A stretch of 19,014 nucleotides of DNA from a virus (lineage: Duplodnaviria > Heunggongvirae > Uroviricota > Caudoviricetes). Location: positions 1 through 19,014 of the IMG/VR virus record IMGVR_UViG_2645727905_000013. One strand, written 5' to 3'. The position numbers were made by a program, and so were the translations under genes. The notes under the pieces were generated by a model. The model saw only the letters and a list, made by a program, of their open reading frames with translations. It made no database searches and was not told where the DNA came from. Shown one piece after another: positions 1 through 15,359 of the stretch; the first letter of the stretch is position 1, and each line of letters starts with the position of its first letter.

Positions 1-534
1 TCACTTTTCATCCGTCGTTGACACATGCGGGTCGTCGTAAGCCAGTGCCTGCTGCTGACCGAGTATTTTGTTGATTACCTCAATCACCGTTTCACCGTGA
101 TCAGGCTGGACATCCGGAATAACACCCGACGGCGCACCGTTGTTCACCACCTCAATGCCGAAAGGCGCAGCAAGCGCCTGCGCAATCTGTACCAGCGATC
201 GTCCGTTAAACTGTGTCGATTCGGCTGCACAGTCAATCAGGTCAGCGGTCAGACTGCGTCCGGCAATACCGGTGCTGACCGAACGGGCATCGTAACGAAC
301 GGGCGTCGCCTCCACCCAGCCGGTGATCACCAGCTCATCACCAATCAGAACTTCCACTTTTGAACCGTTTTTAATACGCGGCTGAAGCGTGGTGATACAC
401 TCATCTCCCGGCCACTGGCGGGTGATCTCCACACTGAAATCCCGTGCCAGCCGTTCAATACCGGCACCGATGCGCACCGATGTCCAGCCATTCCACTCCC
501 GGCCATTTACCCGTAGCGTGACGTTATCGTTCAT
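1..534 (-). CDS. Mu-type tail/baseplate protein (gpP-like position), short, possibly truncated
   Basis: 177-aa ORF whose ATG overlaps the stop of the upstream DNA-circulation gene (tcat at 531-534). It occupies the position that follows gpN in Mu-type tail clusters. Its stop codon is at window bases 1-3. Family assignment is by context only. Confidence 0.4.
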   Translation of the reverse strand: MNDNVTLRVNGREWNGWTSVRIGAGIERLARDFSVEITRQWPGDECITTLQPRIKNGSKVEVLIGDELVITGWVEATPVRYDARSVSTGIAGRSLTADLIDCAAESTQFNGRSLVQIAQALAAPFGIEVVNNGAPSGVIPDVQPDHGETVIEVINKILGQQQALAYDDPHVSTTDEK

Positions 535-1859
535 TGCACTGGCACCTTCAGAGGGATCACCGGCACAAAGCCGGGATGTGTAATGGCATTGCGCCGGATA
601 ATGTCCGCGTCATGCGCCGCGTTATCAAACCAGGTCGCCGCCAGCACCAGCGCGGGTAAAACCTCATCCGGCGTACGCTGAATGATCCGCGCAGACTGTT
701 CAAGGCGCGTGTTGATATCCGCATTCAGATCTGCTTTCACCCGGCGCAGCGCCAGAAACAGCACATCACTGGTTGTACGGGACAACTCCTTATCAATTGC
801 CGTATTCAGTGTGTCGCGAATGTCGGTCAGCTCTTCCCACGTTGGCAGGTCAACCGTGTTTTTCACCGCCGGTGCATTGTTCAGTGCCGGATGCGTGACG
901 GAAGGCCAGCCGGTGCTCTGCGCGGGTGTTGTTGACTGCCCCACTGCGGCATTCTGCATCACCGCGGAAGTTGTTGGCGCAGGCAATCGGGTAACGGCAT
1001 ACGCCGCTTCGCTGATTGCAGTCGTACGAAGGGTGCTGGCAACCACGTTACGCTGCTGCGTCGCTGTGGCGGTGGTTTTACTGTCCGTTTTCCAGACACC
1101 GCGCGGTTGCAGATCGCTGCCGAGGCTGACACCGGAAAGCGTTTTGATCATGGTGACCAGGTCGCTGGCGTTACCATAAAGGCGCTTCCCGGTACGCCAC
1201 ATTTTCTGCACCTGCTCAACGAAATTTTTGCCTGACGATGGCGGCGGCAGAAGTACCGAGATATCCCCCTGCAACAGCCTGGCGGCATCCGATACAGCAG
1301 AATCCACCACTTTCATCGCATCAGAAACATACCCCAGCATTATGCTGGCATTACCGATAACGTCGTTCTGCACAAAATCTGCCACGCCATCGATACTGAA
1401 ACCACTGAAACTGTCACTGATGCAGTCATCCAGTGCAGAACAGGATGACATCAGCGTCTGCGCCGTCGCCGCACCTGATGTGGGGTAAGAGAGTTCTCCC
1501 GCTTCGACAAACTTCAGGTCAAAGCGGACAATACGCCCTTCACTCTTCGATGTGCTGACCCGAACCTCCCCGTCAACACAGACTTTCAGCTCACCGTATG
1601 TCGGATGGACAAGCGTGCCGGGACCGGGTTTATTCAGCGCATCAATCAGGCGATCGCGCTGGTCAAAGCAGTCATCTCCCACCACATAAGCCGTGATGGA
1701 CGGGCGGAAAGTGACTTTTCCCAGATCTTCGGTATAGGGTTTGTCGCGGTTCGGGTATTCGTGCGTTTCCACACGACGACCGGTTCCCGCACTTTCTTCT
1801 TCAACCTTAAACGGCACACCGCGAAATGACGCGTCCTGAAGTCTGTCTTTCCACGTCAT
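531..1859 (-). CDS. Phage DNA circulation protein (Mu gp43/N-like)
   Basis: N-terminal MTWKDRLQDASFRGVPFKVEEES... matches the recalled signature of the Mu N / DNA-circulation N-terminal domain. Start placed at the internal ATG (1857-1859), which has a GGAG 7 nt upstream; the ORF-track start at 1901 has no SD and would include the upstream hairpin. Confidence 0.7.
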   Translation of the reverse strand: MTWKDRLQDASFRGVPFKVEEESAGTGRRVETHEYPNRDKPYTEDLGKVTFRPSITAYVVGDDCFDQRDRLIDALNKPGPGTLVHPTYGELKVCVDGEVRVSTSKSEGRIVRFDLKFVEAGELSYPTSGAATAQTLMSSCSALDDCISDSFSGFSIDGVADFVQNDVIGNASIMLGYVSDAMKVVDSAVSDAARLLQGDISVLLPPPSSGKNFVEQVQKMWRTGKRLYGNASDLVTMIKTLSGVSLGSDLQPRGVWKTDSKTTATATQQRNVVASTLRTTAISEAAYAVTRLPAPTTSAVMQNAAVGQSTTPAQSTGWPSVTHPALNNAPAVKNTVDLPTWEELTDIRDTLNTAIDKELSRTTSDVLFLALRRVKADLNADINTRLEQSARIIQRTPDEVLPALVLAATWFDNAAHDADIIRRNAITHPGFVPVIPLKVPVQ

Positions 1860-1874
1860 ATAAACTCCGTACAT

Positions 1875-1896
1875 AAAAAATCCCACCGGAGTGGGA
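1875..1896 (-). terminator. Possible weak intrinsic terminator/attenuator between tape-measure and DNA-circulation genes
   Basis: On the minus strand: 6-bp stem tcccac/gtggga with a 4-nt loop, followed immediately by a T6 run. Confidence 0.3.
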
Positions 1897-1919
1897 CTCA
1901 TTAACAGATTAATTTTTCA

Positions 1920-2717
1920 TTACCTGCCAAAGCGCGTATAGCCAACATCATGGCTGACATCAAAACCGCTGGATCGCGTTTCCATAACCCGCATACCCGG
2001 AGGCGAATTCACAAAAGAGACCTTGATCTCACCATCAACTTTTGGCGCAGAAGCTTTGTTAATCATGAAGGGGGTCGGGCCTGTGACATCGGAGGCGTTG
2101 TTTGACTGAGCCGGATCTACCGCCGGATAAGGTGTGTATCCCCGCGCCGGTATTCCCGTCCCATAAGCATCATAAGCACCCGCGCCCCACTGCGCAGAGT
2201 TAATGGCATCGACCGTGTCACCGGAACTGTCGGTAAACCACTCAATAATTGGCTTCAGCTTGTCCCACATATCCTGAAACCACTTAACAACCGGCCCCCA
2301 GTTATTGATCACCATCCCCAGCGGCGACCAGGCAAAAACTTTCTTAAGGAGTTCCCAGCCGGCCTCAAAATAAGGACCAATGGTTTCCCAGAGTTTCTTA
2401 AAATAAGGTCCGACAACATCCCAGTTAGTGATAATTAATCCCGCAGCCAGGGCTATCGCCGTCGCAATCATGCCAATCGGCGTCATCGACATGATCCTGC
2501 TGACAATACTGATGGCACCGCCAACGCCCATCAATCCCAGTTTCAGAATCGCAAGACCGGCAGCAAGCCCGACGACGCCGCGAATAACCCGGGGATTTTC
2601 ATCCGCAAACTTCGTGAATTTCTCCCCCAACTCCCCCAGCCATTGCGTGATATTTTTAGCGTCACCAGAAAATGCGCCGCCAATAGCTGCAAGACCGTTA
2701 GTTGCGGTCCCCGTCAT
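1920..2717 (-). CDS. Tail tape measure protein, C-terminal segment (downstream of in-frame TAG)
   Basis: 265-aa ORF with a long Gly/Ala-rich hydrophobic stretch typical of tape-measure C-terminal regions. It is in the same frame as ORF 2724..3623, separated only by TAG (2724-2726) plus two codons. Confidence 0.55.
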   Translation of the reverse strand: MTGTATNGLAAIGGAFSGDAKNITQWLGELGEKFTKFADENPRVIRGVVGLAAGLAILKLGLMGVGGAISIVSRIMSMTPIGMIATAIALAAGLIITNWDVVGPYFKKLWETIGPYFEAGWELLKKVFAWSPLGMVINNWGPVVKWFQDMWDKLKPIIEWFTDSSGDTVDAINSAQWGAGAYDAYGTGIPARGYTPYPAVDPAQSNNASDVTGPTPFMINKASAPKVDGEIKVSFVNSPPGMRVMETRSSGFDVSHDVGYTRFGR

Positions 2718-2723
2718 TGCCTC

Positions 2724-3623
2724 CTACAGGTTGGACAGCGTACCAAGCTGTGCCTGAACACGTTTATTCAGGCTGGCCTGTTTATTCATCTTCTGCTGGA
2801 TCTGATCGTAACCATCCTTCCCTTTATCGATCAGAGCATTGACCACCTGAAGGGTTTCGGCATCATCACCAAATATTGCCTTAAGTACACCTGTTCGCTT
2901 AACGTCGGTCAGTTTTCGCAGCTTTGCCAGTTGCCTGAACATGTTATCAAGACCGCCAAAACTCCCTTTGCCGTCAGTAAAATCGAGCTGCACTCCGAGT
3001 TTCTGGCGGGCCATAACTTTATTAACGTCCCTGATTTTCTTAACGCTTAATCCGGACTGGATAACTTTTCGCAGGGCATTACCTGCCGACTCCCCGTTCA
3101 TCCCCATCTGATCCATCATGACGCTGATGGGGGCAAGGCTCTGTGCAGCCTGAAGACCATCCTTGTTCACCATCTTCAGAACAGAACTGGTTTTAGTGAA
3201 GAAGGACAACATGTTGGTATCGTCAACGCCCAGATAAAACGCCTTCTGGATAGTGTCGAACAGCCCCATCATGTCTTCTGACGCCGTTCCGGTAGCATCC
3301 TGCATCTTTGCAGCAAACTCAGCAGCCGCTTCCGGTGTTTTTTTCAGTTGTACCGCAAGATAGGCTGTCGCTTTACCCACACCACCCAGAATGTTTTCTG
3401 CCGGGATCCCCTGACGCACCAGCATCTGCATCATGTTCTGGAAATCAGCCGTTGTACCGGGTAGCTGGTTACCCAGGCCAATAGCCAGTTTATTGATGTC
3501 CTGAAAGCGCTTTCCGACCTCACCGTTCGCATCCATCATGGCAACTTTCAGCCCGGTATCCATTTCCGCATAAAACAACGGAACCAGCGTATTCGACGGA
3601 ATGGTGTTAAAGCTTATCGTCAT
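2724..3623 (-). CDS. Tail tape measure protein, N-terminal segment (ends at in-frame amber codon)
   Basis: 299-aa alpha-helical, Gln/Lys/Ala-rich ORF located upstream of the DNA-circulation gene as in Mu-type tails. Minus-strand read across the junction is ctg tag gag gca atg. Confidence 0.55.
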   Translation of the reverse strand: MTISFNTIPSNTLVPLFYAEMDTGLKVAMMDANGEVGKRFQDINKLAIGLGNQLPGTTADFQNMMQMLVRQGIPAENILGGVGKATAYLAVQLKKTPEAAAEFAAKMQDATGTASEDMMGLFDTIQKAFYLGVDDTNMLSFFTKTSSVLKMVNKDGLQAAQSLAPISVMMDQMGMNGESAGNALRKVIQSGLSVKKIRDVNKVMARQKLGVQLDFTDGKGSFGGLDNMFRQLAKLRKLTDVKRTGVLKAIFGDDAETLQVVNALIDKGKDGYDQIQQKMNKQASLNKRVQAQLGTLSNL

Positions 3624-3785
3624 CGGTATTCACCTTTTTATTCACGCGCCGGATATCACCCGCTGCTTCACGGCGCAGCCAGTAGTTGTTCTCGTCAACA
3701 TTTCGCCCTTCGGCGGGCAAAAGGTCGCCGCGGGCAGGGTCAGGAACTGACCGCCCTTTAACAGGTTTGACAAACATGAGGATCC

Positions 3786-4139
3786 TCAGGAAGGAAGGGT
3801 TATTTCGGTGTGATGTTCGATATCGCCGTCAGGCCCGTTACCGGGCTCGAGATAATCAACATCAATCGCCAGCGTTTGCAGTTCATCCAGACTGTTCAGA
3901 TCATCCTGCTGGCGGGTATCGTCTTCGGTCAGCTCGCTGATGATCGAAAAATCGAACTGATAAATCAGCTCATGACGATTCAGATCCAGCAGCGTGCCGC
4001 CGTCATAGGTAATCGGGTTACCGCACGCTTCCGGGTTCCAGCCCAGCAGAGCCTTAAAGAGCATCTGCCGGATATCCGTTCCTTCTGACCATGCCACCAT
4101 ATCCAGGAAAGCTTTACGCTGGGAATTTAGTATCTGCAT
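3786..4139 (-). CDS. Endolysin remnant: lambda R-type N-terminus (about 22 aa) fused to unrelated acidic sequence
   Basis: MQILNSQRKAFLDMVAWSEGTD closely matches the recalled lambda R N-terminus MVEINNQRKAFLDMLAWSEGTD; the remainder does not resemble R. The gene sits immediately downstream of the holin, as R does. Confidence 0.4.
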   Translation of the reverse strand: MQILNSQRKAFLDMVAWSEGTDIRQMLFKALLGWNPEACGNPITYDGGTLLDLNRHELIYQFDFSIISELTEDDTRQQDDLNSLDELQTLAIDVDYLEPGNGPDGDIEHHTEITLPS

Positions 4140-4142
4140 AAA

Positions 4143-4469
4143 TTACTCCTTAGAGCCACCAAACTTGTTACCGATCACTCTCATTGCAGCCCCACGAATT
4201 GCATCGACACCAATCAGCCCAACACCGCCACCAATGGCAACAGAAAGAGATTTAGGCCATCCGACATACTCAAGAGCGGATGCAAAAGTCAGCGTCAGAG
4301 CACCACAGAGCAAAATCTCGAGCGTTTTTCGCTTCCACCCACCACCACCGCCAAAATAGGCAATGCGCAATCCAGCCATAACAATCGACATAATCACTGC
4401 GCCAAGAGGCGTATCTCCACGCCACCAGCTCTGGAACAACTCCAGCCAGGTATTTGGGTTATGAGGCAT
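4143..4469 (-). CDS. Holin, lambda S family (class I)
   Basis: 108 aa with hydrophobic helices and a charged C-terminus. Segment LRIAYFGGGGGWKRKTLEILLCGALTL parallels lambda S [24 protein letters not shown]. It lies directly upstream of the R-like ORF. Confidence 0.65.
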   Translation of the reverse strand: MPHNPNTWLELFQSWWRGDTPLGAVIMSIVMAGLRIAYFGGGGGWKRKTLEILLCGALTLTFASALEYVGWPKSLSVAIGGGVGLIGVDAIRGAAMRVIGNKFGGSKE

Positions 4470-4622
4470 TTGTAGTTATCTCTCACCTCGCCGATACAGG
4501 AGGTGTAAATTGAGGGAGTACCACGAACCGCAAATCAGAAGCGGAAACGTAAAAGAAGTCGAGCCAATGGATAAGTACTAGATAGACCAAGCCCAACGAA
4601 TACCAAGGCCCAGAAAAGACAA

Positions 4623-4645
4623 AACCCGCTCAATGGCGGGTTTAA
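4623..4645 (-). terminator. Intrinsic terminator hairpin upstream of holin (tR'-like candidate)
   Basis: Perfect 8-bp inverted repeat aaacccgc/gcgggttt with a 6-nt loop; on the minus strand it is followed by a T-rich tract (tgtcttttct). Confidence 0.4.
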
Positions 4646-4725
4646 GCTGTGTGGCGAAGTAACCACTCTTAACAGATTACAAGAATTTTTGCGGACCGCG
4701 TTAATGATTTTTAATCCCAAAGTCG

Positions 4726-4754
4726 TATTATTCGTTTTTTACTGTAGGAGTTAA
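4726..4754 (-). promoter_or_regulatory. Candidate sigma70 late promoter (pR'-like) reading toward the lysis genes
   Basis: Minus strand: TTAACT (-35), 17-nt spacer, ATAATA (-10). Located about 75-95 nt upstream of the hairpin terminator and about 250 nt upstream of the holin. Confidence 0.3.
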
Positions 4755-4759
4755 CAGGT
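4740..4759. promoter_or_regulatory. LexA (SOS) box-like motif TACTGT-N8-ACAG
   Basis: Sequence tACTGTaggagttaACAGgt has the conserved CTGT and ACAG arms at canonical 8-nt spacing, with an imperfect central region. It sits 10 nt upstream of the KAP NTPase ATG and overlaps the opposite-strand promoter candidate. Confidence 0.3.
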
Positions 4760-4766
4760 TTATATT

Positions 4767-5609
4767 ATGTTAGATACACTATCGTTCACTGAACGTGACG
4801 AGTTCCAACGAAGAAACATCGCTGAAAATATCATCAAGTTGCTAAAACCAGAGGCAGACATTTCACCACTGGTAATAGATGGCGCATGGGGAACAGGGAA
4901 ATCAGAATTTAGTATCAAACTGAAAAATCTCATTATTGAGCAAGAACCCGAATCTAAAGTTGTTTATATTGATGCCTTTAAAGGGGATCATGCAGAATCT
5001 CCATTACTTCTCATAACCTCTGCAATTGCCAGCATTTTGCCTGAGGAAGAAAAACAACACTTCATTAAGAGGTCTCTTCCTGCAATTCGATTTGGTTTAA
5101 AAACTGTACTAAAAGCTGGTGCAGGTTGGTTTTTACGACAGGAGGCTAGTGAAGTTGCCGAAGAATTCCAAGATGCGATGAAGAAAGCAAGCAATGCAGC
5201 AATAGATGGGACTATTGAAAGTTTGCTTGAAGACCATATGGAATCAGAGAAAAACATAAATTCACTTAAATCTTGCATCGAAAGTATTTCAGAAAATCAA
5301 AAGATAGTAATTATAATTGATGAATTAGATCGATGTAAGCCGAGTTTTTCAACAAATGTCATTGAAACAATAAAACACATTTTTGACATCAATAATGTCT
5401 TTTTTATTTTAGTTACAAACACAGAACAATTAAGAGCATCGATAAATCATATTTATGGTTATAGTATTAACTCACAAAAGTATCTTGACAAGTTTATAAA
5501 ATATACCATCACGCTTCCAGATACATGTTTGATAAATGGTCACGACGTATGTAAAGCCTCTGTTATATATTGGAATTACCTTGTAGAAAAAAACAAGATC
5601 ATTAAATGA
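4767..5609 (+). CDS. KAP-family P-loop NTPase, N-terminal part (Walker A and B present); gene appears frameshifted
   Basis: Walker A VIDGAWGTGKSEF (GxWGxGKS type) and Walker B IVIIIDELDRC (DELDRC) are the KAP NTPase signatures. AT-rich composition. Encoded on the opposite strand between Q and the lysis genes. Confidence 0.7.
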   Translation: MLDTLSFTERDEFQRRNIAENIIKLLKPEADISPLVIDGAWGTGKSEFSIKLKNLIIEQEPESKVVYIDAFKGDHAESPLLLITSAIASILPEEEKQHFIKRSLPAIRFGLKTVLKAGAGWFLRQEASEVAEEFQDAMKKASNAAIDGTIESLLEDHMESEKNINSLKSCIESISENQKIVIIIDELDRCKPSFSTNVIETIKHIFDINNVFFILVTNTEQLRASINHIYGYSINSQKYLDKFIKYTITLPDTCLINGHDVCKASVIYWNYLVEKNKIIK

Positions 5610-5757
5610 AATCAATAGCTTATCAGGTTATTTTATCCGTGATTTAATTCAACGAACCAACTTATCATTACGTGAAACACAAACATTTTCACGCAATCTT
5701 AACATTTTTCAACTGTTAAACGACAATGAAGACAACAGTAGTGATCGTTTTATAAAT

Positions 5758-6099
5758 ATGATCTTTGTCGTAGCTGTCTTCATACATTGCTTTGGTGACA
5801 AGGAAAAACTAAAACACGAAATTACCGCTGAATCTATATCTTATTTAGCAGACCTGCTTAAAATAAAAGAGATACCTTATTCTTATGAGATGAGTTCGAA
5901 AATCCCTAAAATATCAATTGTATTCTTTGGAATAATTAAAGACAGTATTACTCTTAATGAGCGATTTGCTCCTAAAAGTGATGAAGAACTAAAAAGATTC
6001 ACCAAAGTTTATACTGATTATGACCACCTAAATTTTTGGAGTACTACACCCAGAGAGTTATTGATAAAATATATCAATCAAATGTCATTCATTCAGTAA
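5758..6099 (+). CDS. Probable C-terminal continuation of the KAP NTPase gene in the +1 frame
   Basis: This frame is open from 5587 (just after a TAG at 5584-5586) through 6099, overlapping the end of the upstream ORF. Deleting one A from the A7 run (5587-5593) fuses the two ORFs into about 443 aa. The first ATG is only at 5758. Confidence 0.4.
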   Translation: MIFVVAVFIHCFGDKEKLKHEITAESISYLADLLKIKEIPYSYEMSSKIPKISIVFFGIIKDSITLNERFAPKSDEELKRFTKVYTDYDHLNFWSTTPRELLIKYINQMSFIQ

Positions 6100-6101
6100 A
6101 T

Positions 6102-6126
6102 AATACGCCCCTGCATGGGGCGTATT
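6102..6126. terminator. Bidirectional intrinsic terminator between convergent KAP moron and Q gene
   Basis: Perfect 10-bp stem aatacgcccc/ggggcgtatt with a 5-nt loop, flanked by T-rich tracts on both strands (tttattaaa on plus; ttattta on minus). Confidence 0.55.
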
Positions 6127-6129
6127 TTA

Positions 6130-6495
6130 TTAAACGTCCAAATCTAATGTTAGATCTAGCATGGAAAGGCAGCCATCAATAAATCCTTCGGCTAACTGTA
6201 TTTCTATACGTATCAATTTCTCATCCTTTCCACGCGCCTTTGCAATCTTACGCTTGGATATTCTGTATAAATAATGTGCCACAAGAAGCGAATGCTCATA
6301 AGGTCTTTTTTGCTTTAGACGAGCAAGACAACCTTCAATAATTAATGCATCACTATCCGAACAAGCCAAGCGTTTCTTGCTGGTATAGGGAAGAAGTCCC
6401 TTAAACCCAGCAGCTATAGGTGAATAATCAACACCAGAGTTATCACTCGCAGCCCATGCTCCCCAACGTTCAAGTATCATCTGAATATCACGCAT
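6130..6495 (-). CDS. Late-gene antitermination protein Q (QuuD / phage 82 Q-like family)
   Basis: MRDIQMILERWGAWAA...IAAGFKGL closely matches the recalled N-terminus of E. coli DLP12 QuuD. Start placed at the ATG at 6493-6495, which has an AGAAAGG SD; the ORF-track start codon at 6508-6510 is TTG. Confidence 0.75.
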   Translation of the reverse strand: MRDIQMILERWGAWAASDNSGVDYSPIAAGFKGLLPYTSKKRLACSDSDALIIEGCLARLKQKRPYEHSLLVAHYLYRISKRKIAKARGKDEKLIRIEIQLAEGFIDGCLSMLDLTLDLDV

Positions 6496-6512
6496 CACCT
6501 TTCTCCACAAAA

Positions 6513-7508
6513 TCAGGCCAGTACGCCAATTGCCAGCGCACGATCGATAAAACGAAATATCAGCTCCAGCTGAGAGCCATACTTCTCTTCAAATGCCACG
6601 GTATCCGCATGCAGCTCGTCGTGATGCTTTCTGCACAAAGGCAACACAAAGAGGTCATGCGCTTTTGTACCCATTCCACCCTGACCGTGGCCTATCAGAT
6701 GGTGGGGATCATCAGCAGGCTTTCCACAACATGCACACGGCTGTGTCTTAACCCAGCGCGTGTACTTTTCATTAACCCAGCGGCGGCTTTTTGGGCGTAA
6801 CATAAAAGACTCCGGCGACTCCGGATCCACTTTCAGCGCCAGCACCTTTTTCGCTTTATCCAGGATGATGCTGGTGGCAGGAACCGAAGGCACAAGGTCA
6901 CTTTCCCGGGTGACAGACGGCACAACAGGTTTCGGTAATCTCAGCGCCTTACGGGCTACGCTTTCAGGTAAGGCATCCGCCAGGTCATTACGAATCAGCC
7001 ACCAGCACAGTTCCGGCATTGTCACGGCATGGTTATCATCAAAATCGAGATCCCGACGGACTACAGACAACACCCAACGGGCACAGTTATCCGTTGCCAT
7101 TGATTCCAGCCGCTCCGTGAACTGATCACGTAACTGATTATCGCAGTGCCAGCACAGACGGATTGCGCCCGGCGCGTGTCGCATTGTGGTCATGTTCTCG
7201 CTGTGCCAGTCGGAATGAGGCCACTGGCAGCCTTTTTCACGAAGTAACCAGCTTTCAAGACATTCCACCCCACCAGCACGACGAATCACTGCCTCATTAC
7301 GGAACACGGCCCGAACGGCAGGATCATCCGCCAGCGGTTGTGATGCCGCCGGAACGGCACCACTGGCGAAAGATGAATAACGTTCCGGCTCAGGCTCCAG
7401 CAGGACACGCCCCTGCATAAACAGGGGCATCAGCTCTGAACCTGGCCTGAACAATACGATCCCCATACGCGGGGCAATTTCAGGGGTCAGTAGCGCTCTC
7501 ACGGTCAC
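6513..7508 (-). CDS. DUF968-like phage protein with C-terminal HNH/zinc-finger-like motif (YdfU-like)
   Basis: C-terminus CACCGKPADDPHHLIGHGQGG...CRKHHDELH has an HNH-type Cys/His pattern. It sits immediately upstream of Q, as ydfU does relative to quuQ in the Qin prophage (recalled). Confidence 0.5.
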   Translation of the reverse strand: MTVRALLTPEIAPRMGIVLFRPGSELMPLFMQGRVLLEPEPERYSSFASGAVPAASQPLADDPAVRAVFRNEAVIRRAGGVECLESWLLREKGCQWPHSDWHSENMTTMRHAPGAIRLCWHCDNQLRDQFTERLESMATDNCARWVLSVVRRDLDFDDNHAVTMPELCWWLIRNDLADALPESVARKALRLPKPVVPSVTRESDLVPSVPATSIILDKAKKVLALKVDPESPESFMLRPKSRRWVNEKYTRWVKTQPCACCGKPADDPHHLIGHGQGGMGTKAHDLFVLPLCRKHHDELHADTVAFEEKYGSQLELIFRFIDRALAIGVLA

Positions 7509-7509
7509 C

Positions 7510-8319
7510 TCAATGAACGGTATCGAGCAGCTTTAACAGCTCAGGGAATCGGGATTCGAAGAAATGCGGCTGCGTCTCGCGCGGATTTGCGGGACTGGTG
7601 ATGTTCTTGCCGAACATGCAGCCTTTCGCCGTCAGCGACCAGAATTTTTTGATGTTGTTAATCGCAGTGCGGCTGTATCGTTCACGTTGTTCAACGATCC
7701 CCAGCTTCGCCATCTGGTGATATGCCTGATTAGCTGTCAGGCGGATACCATACTGCTTCAGCAGTGCACTCAGTGACAGCGTGGGGCGGCTTGAGCCATC
7801 AGGCGCGTCAGCAGGAGCATCAATGGCATAGCGCGGTGCCAGATTCGGTAAGCCAACAGCCTCCTGGAGTTTCTGACAGGCACCAAGCACTGAAGAGTTA
7901 GACAGGTTTAACTCCCGGCGCATAAAGTCCAGCAGGATCACGCCAGCCTGCATCTTGTCAGCAGCCTGTCCGGATAATTTTTCCGGTGCGCTGGTTACCA
8001 TATCGAAAGTACGGATCACCTTCAGATGGAATGACGGGCTGATCCACATTGCATAGGCATACACCAGTTCCTTGCAGACATATGTTCCCCGTTCATTTCC
8101 CCCATGAATCACACTCACCGGGTCAACACCCAAATTCTGGGTGTTGGTCAATTCATGAACAAGCTCAACAGTTTGTTGGCTGGAAAGAAACTTTCCCGGC
8201 TCCTTGGTTCTGGCATTTGCACCAGATGCTACTGCTGCGCGATGCAGATCGTTCAGGCTGTAACGCCCATAAGCATCACGACGAACTTCAATACCATCAA
8301 TGACCATCAGATTATTCAT
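7510..8319 (-). CDS. KilA-N domain protein (antirepressor-like)
   Basis: N-terminal MVIDGIEVRRDAYGRYSLNDLHRAA... is typical of the KilA-N domain. Start placed at the ATG at 8317-8319, which has a GAGGAG SD about 8 nt upstream. Confidence 0.65.
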   Translation of the reverse strand: MNNLMVIDGIEVRRDAYGRYSLNDLHRAAVASGANARTKEPGKFLSSQQTVELVHELTNTQNLGVDPVSVIHGGNERGTYVCKELVYAYAMWISPSFHLKVIRTFDMVTSAPEKLSGQAADKMQAGVILLDFMRRELNLSNSSVLGACQKLQEAVGLPNLAPRYAIDAPADAPDGSSRPTLSLSALLKQYGIRLTANQAYHQMAKLGIVEQRERYSRTAINNIKKFWSLTAKGCMFGKNITSPANPRETQPHFFESRFPELLKLLDTVH

Positions 8320-8338
8320 ACTTCGTTTCTCCTCTTGA

Positions 8339-8728
8339 TCAGGCGGCTGCACCCGCCGTTTTCTCGTACTTACTGATAGTGATCTCGACCTTCCCTTCCG
8401 GGATAACCGGTCCCCACTCCACCAGCATTCTTTTCACCTGACTGTCGTCTTCCCACACACCCGCGTGGGTCAGGGCGTCAAACAGCGCCTTGTTATAGTT
8501 GTCCAGATCGCGGATCCGGTTATCCGGAGGAAACAACACGATCTCCACTGAAGCAGGTGCCGACGTTGGTTTTGGCAGACGACGTAACTGCTCAACTATT
8601 GCTGCACACGCTGCGCTCTGGAATTTGCGCCCCGCCGCGCTTATCAGGCTCTTACCTGCAAACGCCCCTTTGTTGGGGTGTCGCCAGTACGTGTTCACGC
8701 TGGGCGGGAAAGGCAGGATCAGCTTCAT
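8339..8728 (-). CDS. rusA: Holliday junction resolvase RusA
   Basis: 129 aa; ...PPSVNTYWRHPNKG...RDLDNYNKALFDALTHAGVWEDDSQV... parallels E. coli RusA (PPSNNRYYRH...[27 protein letters not shown]). Its ATG overlaps the stop of the upstream gene. Confidence 0.8.
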   Translation of the reverse strand: MKLILPFPPSVNTYWRHPNKGAFAGKSLISAAGRKFQSAACAAIVEQLRRLPKPTSAPASVEIVLFPPDNRIRDLDNYNKALFDALTHAGVWEDDSQVKRMLVEWGPVIPEGKVEITISKYEKTAGAAA

Positions 8729-9051
8729 ACTTTCAGGCCCCTCTCATGTAACCAGTGGGCTGCACGCAGCCTGGCGTTTTCCTCACCGGCAAGCAGTGAG
8801 CGGATAATCCCGACCGCCTCGCTGTCGTCGTCCTTCACCGCGGTATGAAGCGTTATCCCCCGGGCCACGCCACGCTTTATCGTGATGACGCCTTTTTTCT
8901 CCAGCGCACGAAGATGCTCCACCGCTGCATTCACCGAACGGTATCCCAGCATGGTTGCCACCTCCTGATTGGTTGGTGGGAAGCCACGTTCTTTCTGATA
9001 AGAAATCAGCATATCCAGCACCTGCTGCTGGCATTGAGTTAACGTCGTCAT
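8725..9051 (-). CDS. LexA N-terminal DNA-binding-domain-only protein (no S24 peptidase domain)
   Basis: MTTLTQCQQQVLDMLISYQKERGFPPTNQEVATMLGYRSVNAAVEHLRALEKKGVITIKRGVARGITL aligns with the LexA N-terminus ([68 protein letters not shown]). It retains an AGE linker motif but ends about 25 aa later. Start (ATG at 9049-9051) overlaps the upstream stop (TAATG). Confidence 0.65.
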   Translation of the reverse strand: MTTLTQCQQQVLDMLISYQKERGFPPTNQEVATMLGYRSVNAAVEHLRALEKKGVITIKRGVARGITLHTAVKDDDSEAVGIIRSLLAGEENARLRAAHWLHERGLKV

Positions 9052-9545
9052 TAAGCCCCCACGTAATTCCCTGACAGATACCACTCTTCACCCGATGCAG
9101 CGCGCTTGCTGCTTTTCCGTAAGCACCGCTCACGACGCGCCAGAAAATTGTTTCGTTCTGGCTGGGAGTGGCTTTCACGGAATGCCGCCATCCACACGGT
9201 TGCAGCACGACGAAATAAGCCCCTGGACTCCAGTTCTTCCGCCTGGCGGGCCAGGCACAAAATCACCCGCGGGTCGTTAGTGCCGACATAGAAATTGCGC
9301 ACAGGTCTGGTTTCACGAACTGGTTGCCGTTCCGCCTCCGGAGATATCTTTGTCTGGCGCGGGAAATGTCTGCGTGTATCCCCTTCACAACGGTGAGCCA
9401 CACGCCCACTCTGACGTAACTTGCTTGCTGACTGCAGAACGCGCTGCCGTGAGTAACCTGCAAAAGCATCAGCAATGTCTCCGGAAGTACCCCCTGGATG
9501 GGCTTCAATGAATTTCTGAACTTCATTCAAAAGACTCATAATCAC
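9051..9545 (-). CDS. Hypothetical regulator; C-terminal region PerC/ANR-like
   Basis: 164-aa ORF whose ATG overlaps the stop of the replication gene (ATGA). C-terminal ARQAEELESRGLFRRAATVWMAAF...RRERCL resembles the recalled PerC/Pch motif GLWRRAAxRW. The N-terminal half may be a winged helix. Confidence 0.4.
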   Translation of the reverse strand: MIMSLLNEVQKFIEAHPGGTSGDIADAFAGYSRQRVLQSASKLRQSGRVAHRCEGDTRRHFPRQTKISPEAERQPVRETRPVRNFYVGTNDPRVILCLARQAEELESRGLFRRAATVWMAAFRESHSQPERNNFLARRERCLRKSSKRAASGEEWYLSGNYVGA

Positions 9546-10483
9546 CCCCTGAATCCTGCCGGGATCTGGCTGTAGTCCACATTGTCGTAACTGGCTTTGA
9601 AGTACGGGTCTTCACGTTTTTCTGTGTGCGTGCTGACGGACGGCGATAAGCGCAGGGAAAGCTCATCCCATTTTTCCCGCAACTTCGACGGGCTGAGCAC
9701 GTTACGGCACCAGAACGGATCGCGGCTGACGCGGCTGTACATCTCGCAGATTTGTTTGTGAGTACGACCATCCTGCACACACATCAGGCGAATTTCGTTT
9801 GCCCAGGCTGTCCAGTTCGGTTCTTTGGGACGAATCACCTCGCCGTCACATTCGGCGGCCTGCTCGTACAGGGCGATGATTTTTTTCCAGAGCCACTGTG
9901 CGCAGGTCAAATCATCCTGCGTTCCCCACTGACGCTTTTTAGGGCTGAATACAACCGCATCAGGATGGCGAGTTAAAAAATCCTGTTCATCCGTCTGCGT
10001 GTCCGGTTGCGAAGCGTCCGGACGAGAAGTTTTTTTATCTGACGGATCATGTTTTGATTTTACTGACGGATCCCCGCCAGATTCTGACGGGTGAAAACCC
10101 GCTTTTTTGCCAGATTTCGACGCATCAAATTTTGACGGGTCAGATTTTGATGCGTCAGATTTTGACGGGTCAGAATCTGACAGTTGAGAAAATGCCGCTG
10201 CCTGAAGCTTCGCAACGTTAAGCTGATAAACATTCGACGCATTGCGGTTACCCTGGCGACGCGCCTTACGCGTTAACCAGCCTTCTGCTTCCAGCCGTGC
10301 GATAGCCGTTCTGACGGTACTCATCCCCGCGCCAATCTGGCGGGCAATGGTTTCAATTGATGGCCAGCACACACCTTCGTCATTACTGAAATCAGCCAGG
10401 CGGGCCATAATTGCCACGCTGGATAACTTCATGCCTGATGCAGCGCAACCATCCCATACATAGCCGGTTAATTTAGTACTCAT
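9542..10483 (-). CDS. Phage replication initiation protein (lambda O-like role), N-terminal wHTH, internal repeat linker
   Basis: N-terminal wHTH-like segment SIETIARQIGAGMSTVRTAIARLEAEGWL. A repetitive linker (SDSDPSKSDASKSDPSKFDASKSG) is encoded by tandem 15-bp DNA repeats. Located downstream of cro and the cII-position genes. Confidence 0.6.
   Translation of the reverse strand: MSTKLTGYVWDGCAASGMKLSSVAIMARLADFSNDEGVCWPSIETIARQIGAGMSTVRTAIARLEAEGWLTRKARRQGNRNASNVYQLNVAKLQAAAFSQLSDSDPSKSDASKSDPSKFDASKSGKKAGFHPSESGGDPSVKSKHDPSDKKTSRPDASQPDTQTDEQDFLTRHPDAVVFSPKKRQWGTQDDLTCAQWLWKKIIALYEQAAECDGEVIRPKEPNWTAWANEIRLMCVQDGRTHKQICEMYSRVSRDPFWCRNVLSPSKLREKWDELSLRLSPSVSTHTEKREDPYFKASYDNVDYSQIPAGFRG
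10038..10185. repeat. Iteron-like tandem direct repeats (candidate replication origin) inside the replication initiator gene
   Basis: Four or more tandem 15-bp units (caaattttgacgggt, cagattttgatgcgt, cagattttgacgggt, cagaatctgacagtt) plus degenerate upstream copies, with an adjacent T-rich tract (agtttttttatc, 10029-10040). Confidence 0.55.
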
Positions 10484-10652
10484 GACCGACCTCTATTTCC
10501 CTGAATTTACGACGAAACTGTTCGAGCGGACTGAAGCATTCATGCTCATAACCTTCGCGGAGGTAGATAACCCGTTGTGTTTCCGGCTCCCAACGAATGA
10601 CTCTGACGGGCACTCCGTAGTGATCTTTGAACCAGCGGTTAACTTGTCGCAA
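10473..10652 (-). CDS. Small ORF (59 aa, TTG start) overlapping the 3' end of ORF 10493..10831; alternatively the displaced C-terminus of that gene
   Basis: AAGGAG SD 8 nt upstream of TTG; translation [59 protein letters not shown] is protein-like. Its stop overlaps the start region of the replication gene. Below the 60-aa ORF-track cutoff. Confidence 0.3.
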
Positions 10653-10831
10653 AGGACTGTCTCCTTCTGCCGGTTGAAATCACCCACAGCCCACTCTGCA
10701 AAGCTGTGGGTTACAATTTCCCTGTCACCTGGTACATTCACTGCATAGCAATATTCCACCTTCGCTTTTCCACCCGGTACAGGAAGCGCAATCAGTTGCG
10801 AGCGACGGTAGTGTGTTGTTAAACTGTTCAT
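10493..10831 (-). CDS. Hypothetical protein (C-terminal third looks non-protein-like; possible frameshift)
   Basis: ATG overlaps the stop of the upstream gene (ATGA at 10828-10831), which supports the start. A second frame with a strong SD carries protein-like sequence over its 3' part. Confidence 0.35.
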
Positions 10832-11442
10832 GCGTTAGTTTCTCCACAACCAGAAGCAATCGACGCCACGACGCCCGGAGCTGCACACTCGCGGGCGTCA
10901 TTACTTTCTGAAATGCAAAAAATTTTGTAGACAAGTGCTGCATGCTCCTGCAGCTTCGAAATTGAGAGATACAGCTCGTCGTTAATTGCTGTCTTCTCAT
11001 GCGGTTCCACTACACCGTCTTCAATTGCTGAACGAATCTGTTTTGAATAACTGCCGATCTGTTCAATGACTTCCAGCAGGCGCTGGTTAATATCGGCGTT
11101 GTCCACATCCTCGACGTCAGGAAGAGACACAAAGACGCCATTTGCAGACTGCGCCACAGCGTCAGCAATGAAGTGAGTTCCACCAGCACGTTGCAAAATC
11201 ATTGCCCATCCCAGCGGGAAAATCTGATCGCCATCTGCACGAAGGCGGTTAAATAATGCGTTCTCTGTTACATCCAGCCAGTCAGCTGCTTCAGCGTAAC
11301 CACCCGGCAACGCTGCGATAGTTTTTCTGACAGCTTTCACGTACCACTCAGGCTGTTTTTCTACTTTCCAGTGATGCTTACCCACGGTTAGCCTCATCGT
11401 TCTGTGGTTTCTGTTAATCGATTTATCCATTAGATTTTTCAT
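10828..11442 (-). CDS. Hypothetical early protein in the cII/YdaT position downstream of cro
   Basis: Long ORF directly following cro. Start uncertain: ATGs at 11440-11442 and 11428-11430 overlap or abut the cro stop; the ORF-track start at 11499 would overlap cro by 77 nt. Function not recognised. Confidence 0.4.
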
Positions 11443-11623
11443 AAAGCTCAGGTTTAAATGGCAACCGTCCGCAAGTTCTATATGCAGCTTCTGCTGCACG
11501 TCCTTTTGGAATTAACTGGCCCGGACGGTTTCGCCACTGATAAACGGCTTCAGTTGTTATGCCGAAAAAAGCAGCAACTTTCTCAATACTGCCGAAGTAG
11601 CTTTCGATATCGTCAGTTGTCAT
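11423..11623 (-). CDS. cro: Cro-like HTH regulator
   Basis: 66-aa HTH protein (GITTEAVYQWRNR) transcribed divergently from the CI-like repressor, with a GGAGGG SD upstream. Confidence 0.7.
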   Translation of the reverse strand: MTTDDIESYFGSIEKVAAFFGITTEAVYQWRNRPGQLIPKGRAAEAAYRTCGRLPFKPELYEKSNG

Positions 11624-11720
11624 ACGCCCTCCAAACTAAGTTTTATTAGATGCTAATTACAAATCTATCTTTGGTCAACAAAAACTAAGATTACTTAGTA
11701 ATTAAAGAAATGGTGCTCCT
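11624..11720. promoter_or_regulatory. cI-cro intergenic operator/promoter region (OR-like)
   Basis: 97-bp AT-rich divergent intergenic region containing the palindrome ACTAAGattaCTTAGT (11684-11699) and a further ACTAAG copy (11635-11640). A possible minus-strand promoter is TTGACC, 17 nt, TAGCAT. Confidence 0.5.
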
Positions 11721-12347
11721 ATGGAAACGGTTGGTCAGCGTATAAAAGCTCTGAGAAGAGTAACCAGAACGTCCCAGAAAGAATTGGGTAAATTTTGTGG
11801 AGTAAGCGACGTTGCTGTGGGGTACTGGGAGAAAGACATCAATACCCCTGGTGGGGAGGCACTTTCGAAATTAGCGAAGTTCTTCAATACGTCAATAGAT
11901 TACATTCTTTATGGTGCTGAGTTTGAAGGCAAACTCGTCACAAACATGCGCAGAGTTCCTGTAATATCGTGGGTTCAGGCTGGGCAGTTTACTGAGTGCA
12001 GGGCAGCAGAAGTGTTTAGTGAAGTGGACAAGTGGGTAGATACATCATTAAAGATTGGTGATAACTCATTTGCATTAGAGGTTAAAGGTGACTCCATGAC
12101 TAACCCTAATGGCCTCCCAACAATACCAGAAGGCGCAACAGTGATTGTAGATCCAGATGCAGAACCTCGTCATGGAAAAATAGTCATCGCTCGACTTGAT
12201 GGAACAAACGAAGCTACAGTAAAAAAATTAGTCATCGATGGCCCTCAAAAGTTTTTAGTGCCATTAAATCCTCGGTATCCCAACATCCCTATCAATGGTA
12301 ATTGCCTTATCATTGGTGTAGTCAAAGGAGTTCAATACGAACTCTAA
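11721..12347 (+). CDS. cI: CI-like prophage repressor (HTH-XRE N-domain plus S24 LexA-type autopeptidase C-domain)
   Basis: N-terminal HTH (QKELGKFCGVSDVAVGYWEKD), a putative Ala-Gly cleavage site (VQAGQF), catalytic Ser in GDSM and Lys in TVKKL. Confidence 0.85.
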   Translation: METVGQRIKALRRVTRTSQKELGKFCGVSDVAVGYWEKDINTPGGEALSKLAKFFNTSIDYILYGAEFEGKLVTNMRRVPVISWVQAGQFTECRAAEVFSEVDKWVDTSLKIGDNSFALEVKGDSMTNPNGLPTIPEGATVIVDPDAEPRHGKIVIARLDGTNEATVKKLVIDGPQKFLVPLNPRYPNIPINGNCLIIGVVKGVQYEL

Positions 12348-12357
12348 GACCTCTCTT

Positions 12358-12430
12358 TTCTAACTAAGGCACCGAACTAAGAAAAGTTTGGTGTTTTCTC
12401 TTGCCATAATAACTAAGTTAAGTTAGATTT
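12358..12430 (+). promoter_or_regulatory. Candidate OL/pL-like region downstream of cI (repeated ACTAAG motifs; possible promoter)
   Basis: ACTAAG at 12363-12368, 12377-12382 and 12413-12418, the same hexamer as in the cI-cro operators. Possible promoter TTGCCA (12401-12406), 17 nt, TAGATT (12424-12429). Confidence 0.25.
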
Positions 12431-12534
12431 TATGTCAAAGATAACGAACAGGCAGGACGCGCACGAAGTAGCCCGCCCGGTACGTACGAAGACCGGGATG
12501 ATTCGTTAGCGGATGATTTCAGTGGAGAGAATAG

Positions 12535-12843
12535 ATGAATGAGCAGGATTTGAAGCATGTGATCGCATTGTTGCTGGAAGACGCTAAACGTTTGCAGCAG
12601 ATAGAGCCAAATGCAGGCACTGAGGCCCGTATTTTGTTAGCAAAACAGGCATTAAAGACTTGCGGGGCGCAAGACCCTGATCGAACCAAGTTCATGAATT
12701 TCATGGCTAACACGATCACCCCACTGCCATGCAATGGAGAGAGGGTTAGCCGTGTTTATCACGACACAATGGTTAAGGCATTAAGAATCGAGCTTGATGG
12801 GCTTAGGCGTAAGATCGTGATGAACAAAATCGTTGCCAACTAA
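12535..12843 (+). CDS. Hypothetical immunity-region protein
   Basis: 102-aa ORF with a GGAGAG SD at appropriate spacing; first gene downstream of cI. No family recognised. Confidence 0.4.
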   Translation: MNEQDLKHVIALLLEDAKRLQQIEPNAGTEARILLAKQALKTCGAQDPDRTKFMNFMANTITPLPCNGERVSRVYHDTMVKALRIELDGLRRKIVMNKIVAN

Positions 12844-13122
12844 GGAAGCAGACGGAAGTAAGCATGCGCTTTGTTCAAATTTGCAGACAAATATATTTGC
12901 GTCAACACCAGCACTGTTAGCAATGGAAAAAGTTTGATCAAGGATTTGTTGGCAGTTCATTGTGCTTTTGAGGATATATCCCTCTGGAATCAGTCTGCAG
13001 CAGCTATCGTCAGACTCTTTGATTGTTTTCTGGTACAGAAAGTTAAGCATTAATTCTTCAAATTTTTTGGTCTGTTCGGCTGTTGCTTCAAACAGACGAA
13101 CGTGAACATAAAACTGGTTCAT
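12781..13122 (-). CDS. Hypothetical protein encoded antisense to the early-left operon (immunity-region moron candidate)
   Basis: ORF with an AGGAAA SD 5 nt upstream of the ATG at 13120-13122 (protein MNQFYVHVRLFEATAEQ...). Relatively AT-rich. Convergent with 12535..12843, overlapping it by 63 nt. Confidence 0.35.
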   Translation of the reverse strand: MNQFYVHVRLFEATAEQTKKFEELMLNFLYQKTIKESDDSCCRLIPEGYILKSTMNCQQILDQTFSIANSAGVDANIFVCKFEQSACLLPSASLVGNDFVHHDLTPKPIKLDS

Positions 13123-13401
13123 TAGATTTCCTTGCTGGCTGTGTGAGAACTCCAGCATACCACCGAGCCTGAAGTGGTGAAAAGACAGGCAATAGTTTCA
13201 TTGCTGTGTGTAGTCTTGGCGGTACCAGCTTGTACCCTTGCTTCCGGCTGGTACCGTCCTTTTTACAAAACAGAGAAGAGTATCACCGGACGACGGGCTC
13301 ATAACCCAATCCATCCGGGCGGCTGCCACCGCAGGTGTTCTTCTCTGTTTTGTGGAGAAACCAACCGACCTTGCAGGGTCGATATGATGAGGAGCAGCAA
13401 A

Positions 13402-13764
13402 ATGGCTAGCGAACGCAGTACTGATGTGCAGGCATTTATCGGGGAGCTGGACGGCGGCATATTTGAAACCAAAATCGGCGCTGTTCTCAGTGAAGTCGCT
13501 TCCGGTGTGATGAACACAAAAACCAAAGGGAAAGTCTCACTCAACCTGGAAATCGAACCATTTGATGAGAACCGTGTGAAAATCAAACACAAACTCTCAT
13601 ATGTTCGCCCGACTAACCGCGGGAAAATTTCCGAAGAAGACACCACCGAAACGCCGATGTATGTCAATCGCGGTGGTCGCCTGACTATTCTGCAGGAAGA
13701 CCAGGGACAATTACTGACTCTTGCCGGTGAACCTGACGGAAAACTCCGCGCAGCAGGTCGTTAA
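13402..13764 (+). CDS. Hypothetical phage protein (possibly YfdP-like)
   Basis: Strong GAGGAG SD 8 nt upstream of the ATG at 13402. The ORF-track N-terminal extension from 13174 is Cys/Arg-rich and implausible. Confidence 0.45.
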   Translation: MASERSTDVQAFIGELDGGIFETKIGAVLSEVASGVMNTKTKGKVSLNLEIEPFDENRVKIKHKLSYVRPTNRGKISEEDTTETPMYVNRGGRLTILQEDQGQLLTLAGEPDGKLRAAGR

Positions 13765-13829
13765 TATCGTTTTTAATAAACTGATTATTTATCTCATCAC
13801 TGAATATCTTTATATAGTGAGGACTTATT

Positions 13830-14654
13830 ATGTCTCAGAACTTAGACGCAACCGCAATTAATCAAATCCATGCCCTTATTTCTGCTCAGGGTGTTAATGA
13901 AATTATCAGTAAGATTGGTGCCGATGCTGTGGCATTGCCTGAGAATTTCCGCATTCATGATCTGGAAAAATTTAATTTAAATCGCTTCCGTTTCCGAGGT
14001 GCGCTTTCCACTGCAAGCATCGATGACTTTACCCGTTATTCTAAAGATCTTGCAGATGAAGGCACCCGCTGCTTTATCGATGCTGATAATATGCGTGCCA
14101 TCAGTGTGCTTAACCTGGGCACTATTGATGAACCAGGTCACGCAGATAACACCGCCACTCTCAAACTGAAAAAGGCAGCACCGTTCTCTGCTCTGTTGTC
14201 TGTTAACGGCGAGCGTAACTCCCAGAAGTCACTGGCAGAATGGATTGAAGACTGGGCCGACTACCTTGTGGGCTTTGATGCTAATGGTGACGCTATTCAG
14301 GCAACAAAAGCGGCTGCGGCTGTCCGTAAAATCACGATTGAAGCAAACCAGACCGCTGATTTTGAAGATAATGACTTCAGCGGCAAACGCTCCCTGATGG
14401 AGTCTGTCGAAGCGAAGACCAAAGATATTATGCCAGTGGCATTTGAATTTAAATGCGTTCCGTTTGAAGGTCTGAAAGAACGTCCGTTTAAATTACGTCT
14501 CAGCATTATCACTGGCGATCGTCCTGTACTGGTTCTGCGCATTATTCAGCTGGAAGCAGTGCAGGAAGAAATGGCTAACGAATTTCGTGATCTGCTTGTT
14601 GAGAAATTCAAAGACAGCAAAGTAGAAACCTTTATTGGTACTTTCACCGCCTGA
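13830..14654 (+). CDS. Hypothetical phage protein, 274 aa (YfdQ-like by size and context)
   Basis: Well-formed ORF with a GAGGA SD. Size and position next to an HD-domain gene match the yfdQ-yfdR arrangement recalled from the E. coli CPS-53 prophage. Confidence 0.5.
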
Positions 14655-14666
14655 TTTCATTACTGC

Positions 14667-14688
14667 AAATGCCCCTGCGGGGGCATTT
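14667..14688 (+). terminator. Strong hairpin (possible partial terminator) between the 274-aa gene and the HD-domain gene
   Basis: Perfect 9-bp stem aaatgcccc/ggggcattt with loop tgcg; the downstream T-tract is short (ttt). Confidence 0.3.
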
Positions 14689-14782
14689 ATGGAGACGTAA
14701 TTAACTCAATAATCGCCGGATGGTAAGGGCTTCTTTTTACCAAAATTCAGTGCGGTGCAGCGCAAATAACGTGGAGAACAAA

Positions 14783-15331: not shown

Positions 15332-15359
15332 CTAGTGAAATAGTTTTGTAGCAAAAGAA

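Follow-up and report, generated by a model that had tools for sequence, protein, structure and literature searches.

The window analysed here, a 19,014-nucleotide stretch of IMG/VR record IMGVR_UViG_2645727905_000013, derives from an SfV/CPS-53-like lambdoid prophage and carries a frameshifted gene for a KAP-family P-loop NTPase near the antiterminator gene Q. In all likelihood this locus is a recently inactivated gene for a soluble KAP NTPase of 443 residues, belonging to the PADLOC family PDC-S20 and lying in a decaying prophage, with a probable anti-phage role for the intact protein. The gene family is already catalogued (RefSeq 'KAP family NTPase', PADLOC PDC-S20), and the locus is an ordinary recent pseudogene of that family, not a new system. 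A preliminary description of the sequence had seen in it an acquired KAP gene, broken at a run of seven A's (A7) by a pseudogenising mutation, a phase-variation switch or a sequencing error. That reading of the gene is upheld, since both translations match the KAP profile, the frame behind the frameshift is homologous to the C-terminal part of the family and the homologues are full length.

A frameshifted gene of the PDC-S20 family

The open reading frame (ORF) on the plus strand codes for 280 residues, the first 276 of them authentic KAP sequence, followed by four out-of-frame residues and a TGA stop codon (Table 1). Both KAP signatures attributed to it, GAWGTGKS and IIIDELDRC, were located in the translation. 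The homopolymer at 5587-5593 consists of exactly seven A's, as described. In the +1 frame a TAG lies at 5584-5586, after which no stop occurs until a TAA at 6097-6099; from base composition we estimate the chance of such a 171-codon open stretch at about 30% G+C to be about 1e-6. Deleting one A joins the two frames into a protein of 443 residues, the length that had been predicted. Natural intact homologues are likewise exactly 443 residues long and have six A's (A6) at the site. All 55 positions that are invariant in an alignment of 40 family members are unchanged in the repaired protein; the extra A is the sole lesion in the gene, and a recent one. Slippage would have added this A to an A6 run, with translation then stopping after 280 residues.

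We searched the native and the one-A-deleted translations against profile collections. The Pfam KAP_NTPase profile (PF07693, curated cut-off 20 bits) matched the native ORF with E=6e-65 (219.8 bits, profile positions 1-242 of 293) and the repaired protein with E=1.2e-70 (238.5 bits, positions 1-292 of 293). Only in the repaired protein is the whole profile covered. PADLOC PDC-S20 likewise aligned to positions 4-281 of its 450 in the native ORF (E=9.5e-143) and to positions 4-449 in the repaired protein (E=2e-176, residues 3-442). The 5587-6099 frame thus resembles the C-terminal regions of KAP proteins up to residue 442. PDC-S20 membership calls for an intact translatable gene, and the window copy has a +1 frameshift and a stop after 280 codons. 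An unannotated PHROGs family, PHROG 8614, also matched (E=2e-182). No NCBIfam family scored above its cut-off for the KAP protein, and a sequence search of solved structures gave nothing better than E=0.48.

Prophages of Escherichia and Salmonella commonly carry an intact homologue of 443 residues. One such gene, 1,332 nucleotides long (RefSeq WP_001542658.1, 'KAP family NTPase'), occupies this slot in E. coli XH988, and the A6/A7 difference is the only indel between it and the window over the entire coding sequence. Among the 120 enterobacterial (Enterobacterales) homologues in the matches listed, from Salmonella, Citrobacter, Enterobacter, Klebsiella, Yersinia, Serratia and others, nearly all have about 436-452 residues. 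None of the 120 ends near residue 280, and the few shorter ones look partial. Deposited phage genomes contained no close copy; the top match in a phage record is 45% identical. Salmonella assemblies also hold many N-terminal KAP fragments that stop at a few recurring positions (P0005, P0008, P0009, P0013, P0015), and a 198-residue form occurs on 209 contigs, some longer than 450 kb. These ends may reflect recurrent contig breaks caused by an insertion in the gene in one lineage.

Origin of the extra A

The window is 100% identical to NCBI contig JHTC01000038.1 (GCA_001266305.1) and to a Logan assembly of run SRR19671050, and A7 is present in both contigs, each of which is reported from two samples. 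Because two independent assemblies carry it, a sequencing or assembly error in an organism whose gene is really intact is very improbable. Some platforms are error-prone at homopolymers, and an A6 allele that is otherwise identical does exist. It is found in IMGVR_UViG_2695420403_000002 (locus L023), which matches the window over 2,368 bp from holin to Q (4143-6510) save for A6 in place of A7. L023 is not the same strain as the window, however, as it lacks a 2.4-kb deletion described below and has four other base differences.

To place the tract among its relatives we compared 26 related loci from IMG/VR and E. coli genomes. At the tract 25 of the 26 are in frame. Ten distinct intact alleles have A6, and 6 of 18 have an interrupted run (ACAAGAC or GTGAAAC). 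The off state at the tract was found in a single lineage among about 27 loci. The KAP copy of locus L032 was broken in a separate event, in which a T6 run lost one T (L032 about 4634, corresponding to window about 5400), and its ORF stops after 214 residues. The exact 280-residue product is encoded on 2-3 contigs, whereas intact forms are encoded on 784 (E. coli type) and at least 1,000 (Salmonella type).

These counts bear on whether the tract is a functional switch. Either slipped-strand mispairing would turn a costly defence gene on and off reversibly, or slippage during transcription or a +1 slip of the ribosome would bypass the lesion and give some full-length protein. Both tRNA-Lys and RNA polymerase slip on A runs, and the +1 shift required for a bypass falls inside the run. 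The most explicit version would make A6/A7 an on/off device for a costly abortive-infection NTPase in a dead prophage, off in the window and on in L023, with reversion or a slippage leak under phage pressure. That the window and L023 differ over 2,368 bp in tract length alone is what a reversible switch is also expected to produce, and this counts against a simple pseudogene. We nevertheless regard a switch as improbable in general, and its abortive-infection version as equally so. Phase variation appears unlikely because the tract is short, is interrupted in many alleles and is off in one lineage only. A phase-variable contingency locus would have a long conserved tract with on and off alleles both common; A6 and A7 are below the typical length of such tracts, the run is interrupted in one third of the distinct intact alleles and hence unconserved, the 280-residue form is rare beside the intact forms, and the other broken copy, in L032, was hit at a different run. 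Programmed -1 frameshifting on the canonical heptamer A AAA AAC was also considered and rejected, as reading the sequence gives a stop seven codons later, short of the C-terminal domain. Of the three explanations offered for the homopolymer, a real pseudogenising mutation fits the evidence better than a sequencing error or a phase switch does.

We also tried the 113-residue ORF at 5758-6099, within the +1 frame, as a marker of further frameshifted copies. It occurs on a few more contigs; the one among them that was read (L038) proved to be a contig-end artefact carrying A6.

What the frameshift removes

An AlphaFold2 model was built for the Salmonella orthologue, which is 92% identical to the intact E. 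coli protein (mean predicted local distance difference test (pLDDT) score 81.8, predicted template modelling (pTM) score 0.78). Its alpha/beta NTPase core reaches about residue 273, and residues 277 to 443 form an all-helical domain, with pLDDT mostly 82-95. The frameshift coincides with the boundary between the two. Among intact alleles, the ratio of nonsynonymous to synonymous substitution rates (dN/dS) is 0.10 across residues 1-276 and 0.32 across residues 277-443. The C-terminal domain is under selection yet evolves about three times faster than the core, as would be expected of a recognition surface. A 280-residue product would retain the Walker A/B core and forfeit the whole helical domain, including the invariant residues R302 and R309, and the window copy is presumably non-functional.

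Could the gene still work in split or shortened form? Walker A and Walker B are still present in the truncated NTPase, as is the greater part of the KAP core (profile positions 1-242 of 293), and the 113-residue ORF downstream might yield a C-terminal piece translated on its own. In the +1 frame, however, translation could restart no earlier than at the ATG of that ORF, at 5758. The last fifth of the KAP domain and the R302/R309 motif (5662-5694) fall between the frameshift and this codon and cannot be made. Because the motif precedes the first restart codon, no split-gene arrangement could supply L301, R302 and R309. The near-uniform full length of the 120 listed homologues and the purifying selection on the C-terminal domain in intact alleles also speak against a truncated form, and the only other sampled contig with the 113-residue ORF is the contig-end artefact with A6. 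We consider an active 280-residue NTPase, alone or with a C-terminal partner, highly improbable, and the locus is best described as a pseudogene.

A prophage in decay

Compared with its relative L035, the prophage around the gene has two deletions (L035 positions 4533-6919 and 7447-16773), which together cost it about 11.7 kb of genes for lysis, packaging, head and tail. On the lysis and packaging side the larger one, of 9.3 kb, removed most of the endolysin gene, Rz, DUF6236, HNH and both terminase subunits; on the structural side, portal, protease, capsid, connectors and part of the tail terminator were lost. An ORF at 3786-4139 on the minus strand is a fusion of the endolysin start to the tail-terminator end. 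The smaller deletion, of 2.4 kb, cut off the start of the tape measure gene and took the genes for tail sheath, tail tube and tail assembly protein. As short overlaps of 10 nucleotides (4067-4076) and 7 nucleotides (3551-3557) lie at the junctions, the sequences suggest that both deletions were microhomology-mediated. The prophage can neither form particles nor lyse the cell.

Compared over window 3551-8336, L023 has the 9.3-kb junction in common with the window but not the 2.4-kb junction, and its KAP gene is intact (A6). The 2.4-kb deletion and A7 are confined to the window lineage. L023 is therefore a sister prophage at an earlier stage of the same decay series, in which the 9.3-kb deletion came first, followed by the 2.4-kb deletion and the frameshift in the window lineage. 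With 9.3 kb and 2.4 kb also lost, the frameshift reads as one step in the decay of the prophage. For work on PDC-S20, the window with A7 and L023 with A6 offer a natural isogenic pair, one allele off and the other on.

Two smaller differences from relatives were found elsewhere. At 9048-9051 the window is without the phage N6-adenine methyltransferase that relatives have between their PerC-like and LexA-like genes. The window also has a 0.7-kb stretch of its own at 12511-13201, whose ORFs at 12535-12843 (plus strand) and 12781-13158 (minus strand) have no Pfam match.

Exchange of cargo beside Q

The preliminary description had placed the gene between Q and the lysis genes and taken it for a moron at a hotspot. 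Q and the holin gene do flank it, but the holin alone remains of the lysis genes, endolysin and Rz having been deleted. The block is AT-rich, as claimed (28-40% G+C against 50-58% in the flanks), and the KAP gene is on the plus strand, opposite to Q and the holin. Homology among prophages with different cargo stops near 4701 on the left side and near 6127 on the right side, which delimits the cassette.

Other cargo between the same holin and Q bears out the hotspot reading. In related prophages we found a TIR-TM gene (PADLOC), an SDH-family Clp-fold serine protease, DUF6731 and two unnamed proteins, and most sister prophages lack the KAP gene. In the three cargo loci examined (L004-L006) the cargo runs opposite to the phage genes. 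Abutting the Q stop codon, every alternative cargo has a GC-rich inverted repeat of its own, an apparent hairpin. Decay of cargo at the slot is not unique to the window, as the TIR-TM gene of E. coli O166:H15 JNE070796 (L004 2125-2940) is also split, into ORFs of 71 and 198 residues that correspond to positions 1-71 and 75-249 of one PADLOC model. The region can hold more than one cargo gene, since in some sister prophages an extra ORF of 350 residues, read in the phage direction, separates the KAP cassette from the holin (L012; L018 2332-3385, minus strand). The corresponding ORF in L006 (1913-2965) is annotated as a DNA methyltransferase.

The gap between the Q stop codon and the late-control block behaves as a site for exchangeable cassettes in SfV/CPS-53-like prophages. 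No described Q-holin defence hotspot was found in the literature. The site resembles the P2/P4 hotspots described by Rousset et al. (2022), and also the stx slot of Stx phages, in having conserved flanks and exchangeable cargo that includes known defence genes. The slot could be mined for new prophage-borne defence genes.

Table 1. Coordinates of the KAP gene, its cassette, the flanking genes and the deletion junctions in the window.
Feature	Position	Strand	Basis or remark
Native ORF, KAP NTPase alpha/beta core	4767..5609	+	ORF listing; Pfam and PADLOC profile matches
Walker A, GAWGTGKS, residues 39-46	4881..4904	+	G39, W41, G42, T43, G44, K45 invariant (40 homologues)
Walker B / KAP signature, IIIDELDRC, residues 182-190	5310..5336	+	D185, E186, L187, D188, R189, C190 invariant (40 homologues)
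A7 homopolymer, +1 insertion relative to A6 of intact alleles	5587..5593	+	Read from sequence; allele comparison
+1 frame, ancestral residues 277-443, all-helical C-terminal domain	5587..6099	+	Frame scan, profile coverage, AlphaFold2 model, dN/dS
Conserved LSLRE..R motif, residues 299-309, with invariant L301, R302, R309	5662..5694	+	40-homologue alignment
Cargo cassette (1.4 kb): own upstream region, gene, hairpin	4702..6126	+	Limits of flank homology; G+C shift
9-bp GC-rich hairpin	6103..6125		3 nucleotides after KAP stop codon, 4 nucleotides before Q stop codon
Antiterminator Q, convergent with KAP gene	6130..6498	-	PF06530 Phage_antitermQ; RefSeq annotation in relatives
Lambda-family holin, sole remaining lysis gene	4143..4469	-	PF05106; RefSeq 'phage holin, lambda family'
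Putative late promoter/terminator module, conserved block	4622..4704	-	Synteny and terminator scan; hexamers by eye
9.3-kb deletion junction	4067..4076		Window 3551-4076 = L035 6920-7446; window 4067-8109 = L035 16774-20813
2.4-kb deletion junction	3551..3557		Window 26-3557 = L035 1001-4532; window 3551-4076 = L035 6920-7446

Possible function of the intact protein

By analogy, we lean towards an anti-phage defence role for the intact protein, because it shares its slot with TIR-TM, has relatives between cI and int in other prophages, belongs with KAP NTPases that protect against phage and is encoded by a dispensable, patchily distributed gene. The relatives, of 43-45% identity, lie between cI and int in P2/186-like prophages of E. 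coli and Serratia (L040-L045). This is a different cargo slot from that in the window, in an unrelated type of temperate phage. Rousset et al. (PMC9122126) described a cI-integrase hotspot with known defence systems in a P2-related (K139-like) Vibrionaceae phage, and their paper makes no mention of KAP proteins. Two KAP NTPases, Tmn (bioRxiv 10.1101/2022.08.21.504612) and EF_KAP (PMC12632615), protect against phage in a Walker-motif-dependent manner. The closest structural matches of the model are defence ATPases; Cdc6/Orc1, DnaA and TnsC-type ATPases are also among its structural neighbours.

Several points weigh against this role. PDC-S20 is a computational candidate, and we found no paper that mentions it. 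Neither the Pfam search nor the AlphaFold2 model revealed a recognisable effector domain, no partner gene is visible, and the mode of action is a guess. Similarity to PifA (PADLOC, E=1e-17, residues 7-252) and to QatA (2e-13) is limited to the NTPase core. The protein also lacks the membrane helices typical of many KAP proteins, with a 19-residue Kyte-Doolittle maximum of 1.45. Transmembrane helices inserted in the NTPase domain are reportedly typical of many KAP members, though not universal. Here the insert between Walker A and B (residues 93-177) is helical, partly of low confidence in the model, and not hydrophobic.

The intact protein may instead serve the prophage or its host otherwise, for example in regulation of a phage process, in host physiology or in virulence. 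The missing literature on PDC-S20, the missing effector domain and the Cdc6/Orc1, DnaA and TnsC-type neighbours would all suit such a role, as would a published view, cited by the authors of PMC12632615, that phage restriction is probably not the primary role of PifA. Set against this are the TIR-TM defence gene in the same slot, the distant relatives in the cI-int slot of P2/186-like prophages, a hotspot that in a related Vibrionaceae phage holds defence systems, and the defence ATPases that head the structural matches. The gene is also dispensable, being missing from most sister prophages, and its C-terminal domain evolves three times faster than the core. A non-defence role is possible but seems to us the less likely, and defence remains the favoured reading. 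The preliminary description had called the gene an anti-phage candidate; the KAP match and the shared defence slot agree with this, and the role as such is one that we infer.

As a defence protein, the intact NTPase would probably be expressed in the lysogen and work like RdrA or PifA, as a sensor or switch driven by ATP, its faster-evolving helical C-terminal domain binding a phage cue. Infection would then be blocked through oligomerisation, perhaps at the price of cell death or arrest, as with PifA. Any one particular mechanism is a guess, and much less likely than a defence role as such.

Comparison with known KAP systems

PDC-S20 (model PDLC04956; WP_001542658.1) is matched end to end by the repaired protein, with the same 443 residues and as a stand-alone single gene. 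The window copy differs in that, owing to the +1 frameshift, it can make only the first 276 authentic residues. No conserved partner gene accompanies it across the 26 loci. PDC-S20 is a soluble KAP NTPase whose fold resembles that of RdrA, and neither an effector nor a partner is visible.

PifA of the F plasmid, which excludes T7, likewise has a KAP core with Walker A and B and is a single gene on a mobile element. It differs in its profile of about 720 residues and in C-terminal domains that the profile test found unrelated. RdrA, the ATPase of RADAR (PDB 8fnt, 8fnu), has about 790 residues, is partnered by the RdrB deaminase and shares a sequence identity of 11-15%. We rejected membership in RADAR, as no RdrB-like neighbour is present and the neighbours are Q and the holin. 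Membership in Qat was rejected as well: the NCBIfam QatA model scored 36.6 bits against a cut-off of 600, and no Qat genes are nearby. Tmn and EF_KAP are, like the window protein, single-gene KAP P-loop proteins, but both have transmembrane helices and the window protein has none. Tmn membership was dismissed on this ground and because no Tmn model appeared in the PADLOC output. The extra region of EF_KAP comprises 322 residues compared with about 167 in the window protein.

Hairpin and late-control block

A framing bidirectional terminator had been noted at 6102-6126. The simple terminator scan omitted this hairpin, its T-run being just under threshold, and we therefore folded the region directly. 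A strong fold was found at 6103-6125 on both strands (plus strand -18.3 kcal/mol, z-score -4.5; minus strand -20.0 kcal/mol, z-score -5.2). The hairpin is probably a two-way terminator. In XH988 the stem is retained and the loop altered.

On the other side of the cassette, a 92-nucleotide block (4621-4712, minus strand) is conserved beside many different Q and holin types. By eye, it contains TTAACG (4704-4699) and TGTAAT (4681-4676) with a 17-nucleotide spacer, hexamers that the promoter scan did not call, and an invariant palindrome, GCGGTCCGC (4699-4691), lies inside the spacer of this TTAACG-N17-TGTAAT arrangement. At 4643-4622, on the phage strand, the terminator scan found an intrinsic terminator. 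An Stx2 prophage also has the block, there directly behind Q and upstream of a methylase, tRNAs and stx2. The block is probably a module of late promoter, Q-binding site and tR'. Going by synteny, the KAP cassette would sit between the Q stop codon and this putative late promoter, upstream of the slot used by stx; in this it differs from the stx genes, which are downstream of the block.

For the KAP gene the promoter scan yielded nothing convincing: from its plus-strand hits (4738-4766 and 4751-4780) transcripts would begin no earlier than the ATG itself. Inspection by eye alone picked out a weaker TATTAT at 4726-4731. A minus-strand hit at 4754-4727 was rejected as the late promoter, since it lies in cargo-specific DNA. 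Over the whole window, Rfam gave no match and the tRNA scan found no tRNA.

A possible second islet

The end of the window, 16800-19014, is AT-rich (32-37% G+C) and lies just past a lambda-type integrase gene (15601-16728). It codes for a SMEK-domain protein (16977-17897), whose N-terminus weakly matches a PADLOC Argonaute-associated model, and on the minus strand for a trypsin-like protein (18331-19014) with a weak LmuA match. From its gene content, this region may be a second defence-type islet beside the attachment site.

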